This document shows positions 1 to 3,000 of a stretch of DNA of 17,503 nt, piece after piece. Positions within the stretch are counted from its first letter, which is position 1; the number at the start of each line of letters is the position of its first letter. Made by a program: the position numbers. This DNA is from a virus (taxonomy: Duplodnaviria > Heunggongvirae > Uroviricota > Caudoviricetes), in the IMG/VR virus record IMGVR_UViG_2740892231_000009; one strand, 5' to 3'.

Positions 1-3000
1 TTTGTTTTAACCTCATTACAGATTTCAGGGTGAACGAATCTCTGCCATTGCTGGCATTTTTAATCCGTTGGTATGGTGTTAATATGGCTGGAGGGTTATC
101 CAGCCGGTGTTTCGTTATTCAGGTACAGCGATACTTTTTTTAGCGGGAGGCATTCACCAGAAATTTTTTGCTCGTCTCTTGCCTGGAGGCAGGATTCTTT
201 ACTTGCATAAATTCCGGTAATCACATTCTGTGATTCACCCGTTATAAGAAAAACCGTCATCATCAGTGCAAATGCTGAAGTCATTGACGTTCTCCGAAAA
301 TACCAAGTTCAAGAAGAGCAATTCGGGAAAGTATGGAATTATCATTGAGCAGATAAGGCTCATATTTCCTCATATTAATGGCATCTTCAGTAAACTCCCG
401 GTTACTGAGCAGAACACCAATATCAAAACAACCTTCAGACGTATTAACGTTTGGTAATAACGTTTCCATTATCGCGTCCTCAACAATGAATTTTGTGATG
501 CAGTGCCTGGTGCCTCCAGGTGACGTTAACCAGTTAACAATTAACGCCGGATAAAGAGAATCCACCCATAACACTGTTTTTGGTTTTAACTGTTCCGCGT
601 GCGCTCAGCCGCATTCACCACATCACAAAATTCACTTTAAAAAGGGCGGCAGAGCAGTCACGGAGTAAAACTGATACCGCCAAAAGTCACCAGAAAATTG
701 ATAACAGAGGGCGTTGCAGCGGAGTTGTCACTTAAGCGTATGGTCAACCTGACAACCCGGTGTCCTCAACGGGGGAAGGAATAACCCCGCCATACTTACC
801 GCCGCGCCATTTCGCGGATTGCCACAACCGGAAGCGCACGATCGAATTAAATTTAACGACGACCTATACAGAGAGACTAACTTCTCCGGGCGCTTTCGTG
901 TTATGCCCTGACTTTTCAGGGATATATCCTTTTCAGTAAACTGTCAGTGCCGGATTCTTATCCGTGTCCGGCGCACGCACTCTACCTCACCTGTGAATAA
1001 ATTAATGATTAATTGATATTTTGTTGTTTGATTCAACTTTCCCATCGGATGTGTGATGCTTTAAATCACAGGAATTAATACTGCTTGCTGTAAAATGATT
1101 TTCAAGGGGAGCTATTCGAATCCCTTTCTTTTTCATTAACAAGCCAAATCCTTTATTAATGATGTCCATTAATTCCAGAAAGTATTTTTCATGTAAATCC
1201 TGGTTATCAGAGAGCTGCTTCTCTTCGTACAGCCCGATAAAGGCTCGGCGTACGTTACCAGATATATTGTCGATGGTTTCTTTTTCTACGGTACTCAGGT
1301 CAAGAGTCGCCAGTTGAGAGCGAACCACATTCGCTGCCATTTCCTGGAATGGCATTGGTAAATCTTTAAATTCCATTATTAGCCTCGTTGGTTAGCTATT
1401 AACGCGGGTATGTAATCATTCTGGCAATGCTTAATGCCGCTGCTTTTTCCAGCCTGGTGATATCCTGCTCCAGAGCGGACAGATTTTCAGCCTGCTTAGC
1501 CCTGGCTTCATTGGCCCATTTCAGGTCCTGCGCAGCCTTAATTTTCTGGTGCATCCACTCATAAAGTTCATCATCGGTATAGTCTGGCGCGATGATGACG
1601 GGTTCTCGTTTCTGCATACTGATTCCTCGCGGTGCTGTTTCGCTTATCAGCCGTTAGATTTTGCCGAACTGGAAAGCGCCTGTTTAAACTCACTGAAGCT
1701 GAGGGCTTCTTCGCCTTCGGCAAGGCCTTCGAAGTATTCTTCGTAAGCCTTTTCCATGATTGTGTTGAAATCCATATCACTCACCTGAGTTTCTTTCCAG
1801 CCAGCGACGGGCACCATTTTCGGTTTTAAACGTTTTGCTTTTGGTATACGTCATCGCGGTGAACGTACCGTCCTGGTTGGGGAACACGCCACATACCAGA
1901 GATTCGCTGTTGCCAAGATCGATAGTATCCATGCTGACCTCATTTCCCCTTAACGCCGGGGTAGCGGAACAAAAACCTGCTGCATAGTTATTAAAGTTGA
2001 ACCCTGCCGTCATGTTCTTACGCCTCGGGCTGGCTACTTAACCCCTGACCACTGCCGGGTAACTCGAAGTATTTCCCTGCGTTCTGTGGGGCGGGGTGGG
2101 TTGGTATGTTGTTAAGGTAACAAGAGTTACCTTTCAAGTCAATACAATGTTGCAAAAGGTACATTTGAGGGCATAAAAAACCCGCAATGAATGCGGGTTC
2201 TGACTCAGTCTAAGTATTGATGTATTTGTGAAACTTTACCTTTAATGGTGTAACCACCATTCAGTTCGATGGGTTTGTAAAGCGGATTCAGTGACAACAG
2301 ATAGATGTTTGGTCCGTCAATCGCAACTTTTTTTAGTGTTACGTTTGGCGTTCCTTCCAATTGGATTAAGATTATTTTTCCCACCAGTTCTCTAATGTTA
2401 CTTGAGCATGGTGTGATCAGCACGGTAGATCCGTCGGGGATGGTTGGGAGGCCGTTAGAGTTTGTCATCGCATCTCCCTCAACATGCAATAAAAAAGAGT
2501 TTTCAGCGGTTTTTGTCATGACATCAACCCAGTTCTTAATACCAGGAATCTTGGTTACTGGACAACTCATATCCCAATAACCAGCCTGTTCCCACGTTAA
2601 AACGGGCAACCGGGCGATGTTGTCACTAATGTAAGGGTACTGATTCAGACGCAGATCATCGGTTTTATCGTGACCGTCCTTTCCATAAAGAATCCATTCA
2701 GGAGATTTGGAAAGCAATTTTGACAGTAGATACAAATTCTCACCGTCAGGTTTTGAAGAGCCATTTTCCCATTTTGTTACGGATACACGAGATATGCCGA
2801 TTGCTTTCGCAACCTGCTGTTGGGTTAATCCAACGTCTTTTCGACGATTCCGAATACGTTCGCTGATAGTGTTTTTCATGTAACCAATGTTACCACCAAG
2901 TGATGTTGCTATGGTTGACATTGTTATGTAACTATTGTTACCCTTCTGCTCGAAATAACAGGAGAGTTTTATGTTCAAAGATGATGTTCTGCGCTATTTC

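Follow-up and report, generated by a model that had tools for sequence, protein, structure and literature searches.

The dicBF operon of the Qin prophage of Escherichia coli K-12 is the best-described relative of the locus considered here. Its small RNA (sRNA) DicF is freed through processing by the RNases E and III and represses ftsZ and other targets, while DicB is a MinC-dependent inhibitor of division. Here, we describe a variant of this operon carried on a 17,503-nucleotide stretch of tailed-phage DNA (IMG/VR record IMGVR_UViG_2740892231_000009; the whole stretch is called the window below), with emphasis on a gene for a 124-residue protein that lies between ydfC and DicF. Positions 96-2921 on the minus strand belong to a lambdoid E. 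coli prophage and comprise its immunity region together with its early-left operon, a mosaic variant of the well-studied Qin operon. The module itself is known, and its DicF/DicB part offers no novelty. Reading along the minus strand, the order is repressor, promoter/operator, ydfA, ydfB, ydfC, the 124-residue gene, an untranslated leader of about 305 nucleotides, DicF, a spacer, dicB and a ydfD-like gene. This is the Qin-type order ydfA-ydfB-ydfC-dicF-dicB-ydfD, all on one strand, with one gene added between ydfC and dicF.

The added open reading frame (ORF) occupies positions 1002-1376 (minus strand, as are all features of the operon from the repressor to the ydfD-like gene). It starts 22 nucleotides after the ydfC stop codon, and this spacer (1377-1398) contains a GAGG Shine-Dalgarno sequence 6 nucleotides before the ATG; the same 22-nucleotide spacing recurs in other loci in which ydfC is followed by the ORF. 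The product (RefSeq WP_000394528.1) is a full-length match to PHROG 6937 (5.7e-78), and the identical 124-residue protein is found on at least 1,000 contigs. Selection was assessed with six alleles, namely those of the window, of three E. coli loci that differ in their repressors (L135-L137) and of two E. albertii copies. The ratio of nonsynonymous to synonymous substitution rates (dN/dS) among them was 0.09-0.39, with values of 0.15-0.21 for the most diverged pairs (dS 0.43-0.48), and it was similar for codons 1-55 and 56-124. Given the full-length PHROG match and these dN/dS values, the ORF did not arise by chance: it is a genuine gene under purifying selection. A reading of the window made from sequence alone (hereafter, the sequence-only reading) had proposed the ORF and its good ribosome-binding site, and was right on both; its figure of about 33% GC was too low, the measured value being 37.6%. 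Composition is uneven along the gene, with 46% GC in codons 1-55 (1212-1376) and 31% in codons 56-124 (1005-1211), compared to 47-51% in the neighbouring genes.

The gene is common in E. coli. Among 5,426 complete E. coli genomes, 896 gave matches to its 375 base pairs, and in 672 of these the match extended over 80% or more of the gene; many of the partial matches cover just the first 113-181 nucleotides. The intact 124-residue form is also present in E. albertii.

The earlier claim that K-12 lacks this gene is borne out by a clean presence/absence difference of about 360 base pairs. Alignment with K-12 Qin is nearly identical through ydfC and is then interrupted by a block found in the window only, which runs from the ribosome-binding site and ATG of the 124-residue ORF to its stop codon. 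Beyond this block the two sequences align again, from the leader across DicF and the spacer into dicB, of which the first half is included. In K-12, the 35 nucleotides that follow the ydfC stop codon at the junction align with the 22-nucleotide spacer of the window plus the first 13 nucleotides of the ORF; both GAGG and ATG carry mutations there, and the segment resembles a decayed ribosome-binding site and first codons. Such a junction suggests, without proving it, that a deletion occurred in Qin-type elements rather than an insertion in the window.

How often is this position filled in DicF operons? We surveyed IMG/VR viral contigs that carry an exact DicF 23-mer, and 105 loci with at least 1.3 kb of upstream sequence were listed. 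Among these listed matches, the K-12 layout accounts for 41 of 105 loci; ydfC followed by a member of the same protein family for 12; a family member in a locus that lacks ydfC for 30; ydfC followed by some other insert for 4; and the remaining 18 have neither ydfC nor a family member. A family member thus stands upstream of DicF in 42 of the 105 (about 40%), fractions that are indicative and tied to the exact 23-mer. The 42 proteins comprise 22 distinct sequences of 64-216 residues, with several unrelated C-terminal parts. The textbook K-12 dicBF operon is just one of several common layouts. A different kind of occupant was seen in three IMG/VR loci (L015, L021 and L025), where the slot about 270-890 nucleotides upstream of DicF holds a 205-residue ORF. 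Its first 48 or so residues are those of YdfB, fused to a different C-terminal part, which is again a shared head with a swapped tail.

The conserved unit of the family is its first 50 or so residues, with the pattern MEFKDLPxxIQxIAAxxL...KEPxxxLARxVRxAFxxLY. A search of 5.8 billion proteins recovered 226 homologues from Escherichia and Salmonella, all 'hypothetical' where a source name was given, and when 1.84 billion representatives were searched exhaustively with a family profile in HMMER, just 64 clusters (50% identity) emerged. With a profile of the N-terminal domain the set grew to 281 proteins from Escherichia, Salmonella, Klebsiella, Raoultella, Serratia, Hafnia and Atlantibacter, and a locus search with the family alignment (three loci) added one in Xenorhabdus. 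All homologues are from Enterobacterales, and their names are nearly all 'hypothetical', the others being two implausible enzyme annotations. The N-terminal domain is 30-40% identical across genera. It makes up the whole protein (50-75 residues) in many prophages, including those of Salmonella and Klebsiella, and is joined to several unrelated tails in E. coli. These N-terminal 50-60 residues are common to PHROGs 6937, 1363, 2151, 9419 and 33007, all of 'unknown function', and the tails of other alleles match further PHROG families on their own, which indicates domain shuffling.

Structure prediction with AlphaFold2, using a 40-sequence alignment, gave helices at residues 8-24 and 32-55 with a predicted local distance difference test score of about 88-91, and a weaker helix at residues 62-82 with lower confidence; the remainder of the tail is predicted to be disordered. 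Judged from the alignments, this model and the PHROG cross-matches, the 124-residue protein carries the N-terminal motif as a two-helix unit encoded by codons 1-55, followed by an allele-specific, AT-rich tail that is swapped in other family members. The domain is acidic, with an isoelectric point of 4.65. As the sequence-only reading had supposed, the protein has no recognizable motif: scans of it against Pfam, NCBIfam and PADLOC turned up nothing above noise (VLPT at 16 bits). Running Pfam on 40 and on 8 family members, tails included, produced no real domain; profile searches of the sequences in the Protein Data Bank with two family alignments reached a best E value of 0.24; and fold searches returned only a 52-residue phage homologue or generic helical hairpins. 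In literature searches by protein accession, MEFKDLP motif and operon, no publication about the gene came up. Small and confined to Enterobacterales, the family is catalogued but unstudied, and its architecture and its linkage to DicF-type leaders are undescribed as far as we have found; neither is surprising for lambdoid early regions. One further architecture was encountered on a single short metagenomic contig of 1.8 kb, where a 149-residue protein (P0164; positions 1037-1486 of locus L138) joins a YdfC-like N-terminal half to the family domain. We did not use this fusion as a sign of a functional link to YdfC, as it was seen once and may be an assembly or frameshift artefact.

In other genera the family gene also tends to lie early in the leftward operon. 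The stand-alone domain gene of Salmonella and Klebsiella prophages is the first after a DicA-like repressor, and is followed by a gap of 500-640 nucleotides, then by YdaE or Lambda_Kil, and then by RecE or xis-int. A second Klebsiella type has a 124-residue member with a different tail, also upstream of Kil. In Hafnia the family gene is followed by isrK/C4-type RNAs, an ORF6N gene, Kil and RecE. In one Salmonella locus, DicF scores above the Rfam threshold within the gap after the family gene; a second Salmonella locus, E. albertii, another E. coli locus and Klebsiella have DicF and/or STnc100-like matches there that fall below threshold. The usual arrangement is therefore an N-domain gene, a leader of about 300 nucleotides, a DicF-type RNA, an STnc100-like spacer and a division inhibitor. 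Considering the slot occupancy, the early-left position in other genera and the decayed remnant in K-12, loss from Qin-type elements is at least as likely as gain in the window. Between its stand-alone N-domain gene and its ORF6N gene, at 4225-4421, the Hafnia alvei prophage (L141) carries isrK (67.6 bits) and a C4 antisense RNA (68.4 bits), a P1/P7-type antirepressor control module at the place where E. coli has the DicF leader.

The DicF RNA of the window (short form of 52-53 nucleotides with a terminator hairpin and U-tract, 644-695) matches the complete Rfam model RF00039, positions 1-52 of 52, at 75.8 bits (E 1.7e-15) against a gathering score of 48. In pairwise alignment it differs from K-12 dicF at one base, so the identification in the sequence-only reading survives exact alignment, although the 5' end falls at 695 in the Rfam match rather than at 696. 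Alignment with K-12 shows that DicF is located upstream of dicB in a polycistronic operon, inside a long stretch that is not translated, as has been described for this RNA (PMC5069750). In K-12 Qin, ydfC is followed by a 340-nucleotide spacer and then dicF, and the untranslated leader of the window (697-1001) aligns with that spacer. Ragunathan et al. (2023) reported that RNase III yields a 190-nucleotide DicF and RNase E the 53-nucleotide form, confirming earlier work, and no internal promoter was found in the K-12 operon (PMC10448788). In a comparison of 98 distinct loci, sequences are 41-86% identical to the window over positions 1042-843, a figure that jumps to 92-100% from 842 through DicF to dicB (92-99% for 842-697 alone). 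A 190-nucleotide RNA ending at the DicF terminator would, by length, start near position 833, which matches this conservation step; the 5' extension of the long species would then span 696-833, with an approximate 5' limit obtained by length arithmetic. The gap of about 300 base pairs had been called non-coding and unexplained. It is indeed non-coding, in that 697-1001 contains no conserved ORF, but it does have an explanation: this is the conserved leader of DicF, of which the proximal 140 or so nucleotides match the published precursor made by RNase III. We also considered a new structured RNA in this leader and rejected it, as the fold z-score of 640-1001 is only -1.87 and the published precursor covers the conserved part; covariation is uninformative here because the leader sequences are 92-99% identical.

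Downstream of DicF, the spacer that forms the dicB 5' leader (470-643) is 92-100% identical over the same 98 loci. It overlaps a sub-threshold Rfam match to STnc100 (437-646, minus strand; 34.2 bits against 47), and is nearly identical in a Salmonella prophage whose leader upstream of DicF cannot be aligned with that of the window. Perhaps STnc100 is simply the DicF-distal leader of dicB/kil-type genes.

What controls transcription of the added gene? A putative early-left promoter (2117-2141), with the -35 sequence TTGACT, was recognized by pattern and sequence and is overlapped by a palindromic operator, GTAAC-N4-GTTAC. The window contains three exact copies of this operator, against 0.33 expected even for matches with up to one mismatch: one at 2117-2130, between the TTGACT box and ydfA, and two with no strand assigned at 2880-2893 (overlapping the 5' end of the repressor gene) and 2928-2941 (between the repressor gene and cro). 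The three copies support the view that the CI-like repressor controls the ydfA-dicB transcript, without proving it. Near the 124-residue gene, the only promoter-like match (1402-1375, 9 of 12 positions) ends inside the start codon; it comes from a crude scan that also missed the early-left promoter. Between the stop codon at 1002 and DicF there is no hairpin with a T-run, and a hairpin at 952-975 lacks a T tract. Two traits of a moron were found, namely deviant composition in the tail, though the N-domain has ordinary GC, and absence from K-12-type loci. Since no promoter or terminator of its own was detected, however, the gene does not look like a classical moron, even though its tail is compositionally foreign. 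The candidate moron of the sequence-only reading finds little support: the gene is packed 22 nucleotides behind ydfC, has no promoter or terminator of its own that we could find, and fills a slot that is occupied in about 40% of the DicF operons among the matches listed.

The repressor gene (2205-2921) encodes 238 residues with HTH_3 (3.5e-17) and Peptidase_S24 (9.9e-17) Pfam matches. K-12 DicA has 135 residues and aligns only to the HTH part, with 54% identity over 70 residues, so the sequence-only reading was correct in placing a CI-like S24-type repressor where Qin has DicA. The partner is P22_Cro-like, and the DicA/DicC immunity pair is not found here. Among the matches listed, this repressor allele occurs with every slot layout, and in L135-L137 the same 124-residue gene stands behind RacR-like, other and LexA-family repressors; on both counts the repressor swap is ordinary lambdoid mosaicism. 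Over residues 25-231 the repressor aligns to lambda CI (3bdn), and its EGDAM (about 2464-2478) aligns with EGNSM of lambda CI, which puts Ala (codon GCG) at the position of the nucleophile Ser149. The general-base Lys is kept (TLKKV versus TFKKL), as is the Ala-Gly site (EQAGYW versus VQAGMF). The Ala is present in every copy of this allele among the matches listed in the survey. With Ala in place of Ser, a lack of RecA-stimulated self-cleavage is predicted, and induction may need an antirepressor; the missing catalytic Ser bears on how such dicBF operons are induced.

Our preferred explanation, which we consider somewhat better than an even bet, is that the window carries a mosaic dicBF operon in which a real, modular prophage gene is derepressed together with DicF and DicB and probably encodes a binding protein. 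Its architectural part is held with moderate confidence, and its biology with low confidence. The 124-residue gene would be transcribed only when the repressor is lifted, on a polycistronic transcript with DicF and DicB that would run from the operator-controlled promoter at about 2117-2141. Because the product is small, helical and without a catalytic motif, it would most likely be a small non-enzymatic binder that acts by stoichiometric binding. The predicted helical hairpin may be a unit for dimerization or for binding a conserved partner, the variable tail may tune specificity, and the target would be a component of the host or of a competing phage during early induction. A broader extension is tentative and, in our view, doubtful: the N-domain may mark out a modular, previously undescribed family of effectors encoded in the early operons of Enterobacterales prophages, a conserved helical 'adaptor' fused to exchangeable C-terminal modules, coupled to the DicF/STnc100 leader and to Kil/DicB and acting in phage-host or phage-phage conflict (for example, anti-defence or exclusion), with the 124-residue allele as one specificity variant. 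Several points weigh against the preferred explanation. The time of expression is a deduction, as is dimerization or partner binding; the early-left promoter was assigned from a -35 box and operator read by eye, and a consensus scan did not call it; and slot occupancy of about 40% among the matches listed is no population estimate, given the exact DicF 23-mer required. In addition, a Serratia homologue (L142) lies in a late region before lysis genes and holins rather than in an early-left operon, and homologues in Shiga toxin (Stx) phages are far from DicF, elsewhere in the early-left region.

Other explanations were weighed against the same evidence. Perhaps the gene is a true moron after all, independently expressed cargo that is active in the lysogen and benefits the host, for example by superinfection exclusion or anti-phage defence. 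Its presence/absence polymorphism between otherwise colinear operons would fit, as would the AT-rich tail, the allelic diversity of that tail (as in conflict genes) and the protection against some phages for which DicB of the same operon is known (PMC6832061). We nevertheless think this unlikely, considering that only a Shine-Dalgarno sequence separates the gene from ydfC, that the sole promoter-like match would start transcription inside the ORF, that beyond the stop codon there is no hairpin bearing a T-run, that PADLOC gave no match for the protein, that the N-domain has ordinary GC, and that the K-12 operon was found to have no internal promoter (PMC10448788). Its location at, or close to, the start of the early-left operon might instead point to a regulator of the phage's lysis-lysogeny decision or early transcription, like lambda CIII or N. 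In prophages of Salmonella and Klebsiella the gene comes first after the repressor, the stand-alone forms of 50-75 residues are near CIII in size, and a CII-like YdaT gene is present. Yet none of 40 family members matches Pfam Lambda_CIII or any N family, and the domain is acidic and, in the model, confidently folded, whereas N proteins are arginine-rich and disordered; an analogue of CIII or N was rejected for these reasons. About 60% of the DicF operons among the matches listed, K-12 Qin included, lack a family member, and variable tails fit a core regulatory role poorly, all of which makes a regulator quite unlikely.

Could translation of the ORF matter more than its product? Ribosomes kept on the transcript would limit polarity or decay upstream of the DicF leader, and the protein sequence would be secondary. 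The untranslated leader of more than 300 nucleotides after the ORF would be exposed to Rho or RNases, and the coupling distance of 22 nucleotides to ydfC is fixed. This role in cis is nonetheless very unlikely, because dN/dS of 0.1-0.2 and 30-40% identity of the N-domain across genera show selection on the protein, and K-12 makes DicF without the gene. We give least credence of all to the idea that the ORF is a by-product without function, left by mosaic recombination: databases do hold many truncated and frameshifted versions and the tail is predicted to be disordered, but both halves of the gene are under purifying selection and the intact 124-residue form is present in 672 complete genomes and in E. 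albertii. One further possibility that had been raised, that the gene is a conserved and characterized member of the dicB operon, holds in its first half only: the gene is conserved in many dicB operons but is not characterized. A family so small, restricted to enteric prophages and wholly uncharacterized, is a cheap target for expression and phage-plating tests, and studies in pathogenic E. coli of how DicF is processed and of dicBF toxicity should consider the family protein encoded just upstream of the DicF leader.

The remaining genes of the operon follow the Qin order. The agreement of Pfam, PHROG and RefSeq upholds the earlier assignment of ydfA, ydfB and ydfC upstream of DicF and dicB: ydfC (1399-1617; PHROG 1744, 2.4e-39; RefSeq) is near-identical to K-12, ydfB (1647-1775) rests on RefSeq annotation and PHROG 2061, and ydfA (1777-1932) is a DUF1391 gene (Pfam 2.9e-27; RefSeq). 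The dicB gene (281-469), also correctly identified before, encodes 62 residues that match Pfam DicB (PF05358) from residue 1 to 62 of 62 (6.4e-37; 125.5 bits against a gathering score of 27). The protein is 63% identical to K-12 DicB overall; about 35 residues are close and the C-terminal half is diverged, so that identical function, including MinC/ZipA-dependent activity, should not be assumed. The dicB stop codon is overlapped by the small ydfD-like gene (96-284; Pfam DUF1482, 1.5e-14; RefSeq 'DUF1482 family protein'). A hairpin with a T-run after the repressor gene (2170-2196), read from the sequence, is a likely terminator. On the other side of the repressor gene are P22_Cro (2971-3186; Pfam) and the CII-like YdaT (3183-3608; Pfam and PHROG).

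Positions 1-2200 are 100% identical to two RefSeq E. coli chromosomes. In one of these records (NZ_CP027312.1) the region lies in a lambdoid prophage adjoining ompW, with the order int, xis, large exonuclease, DUF1482 gene, dicB, hypothetical gene, ydfC, ydfB, ydfA, followed by a 'LexA family' repressor, cro, a YdaT-family gene and replication genes. Identity to this record is established for 1-2200 only, and colinearity is lost beyond about 7300, where one gene of the record is out of frame in the window and its tRNA cluster is absent (ARAGORN found no tRNA). Elsewhere in the prophage, 8588-8763 on the plus strand is the sok antitoxin RNA of a hokD-type toxin-antitoxin locus (Rfam, 117 bits). 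Three consecutive ORFs (197/234, 142 and 381 residues) at 6262-8417 on the minus strand, opposite to the flanking phage genes, directly follow a short Q-family antiterminator gene; they have no Pfam match and no convincing PADLOC match, and may be a cargo cassette.

How does the locus compare with described systems? Relative to PHROGs 1363, 2151, 9419 and 33007, the tails are unrelated, and the N-domain unites what the PHROG classification splits. Lambda's pL operon has accessory genes (ral, cIII, kil and sieB) that resemble the window gene in being small, non-essential, repressor-controlled early-left genes that adjoin a division inhibitor and vary among lambdoid phages; the likeness is one of position and size, with no sequence or profile similarity. 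The Salmonella DicF/STnc100 region shares with the window the succession of N-domain gene, about 300 nucleotides, DicF and STnc100-like spacer, but its domain is a stand-alone protein of 66 residues directly after the repressor, ydfABC are missing, and the leader cannot be aligned. The self-cleaving repressors lambda CI and LexA have the same HTH and S24 fold, Lys and Ala-Gly site as the window repressor, which lacks the Ser nucleophile. The closest relative is K-12 Qin, where ydfC, leader, DicF and spacer are near-identical and the substrate for RNase III and RNase E processing appears to be conserved. The window differs from it in the diverged C-terminal half of DicB, in a CI-like HTH and S24 repressor with a P22-Cro-like partner in place of DicA/DicC, and in the extra 124-residue gene between ydfC and the leader.

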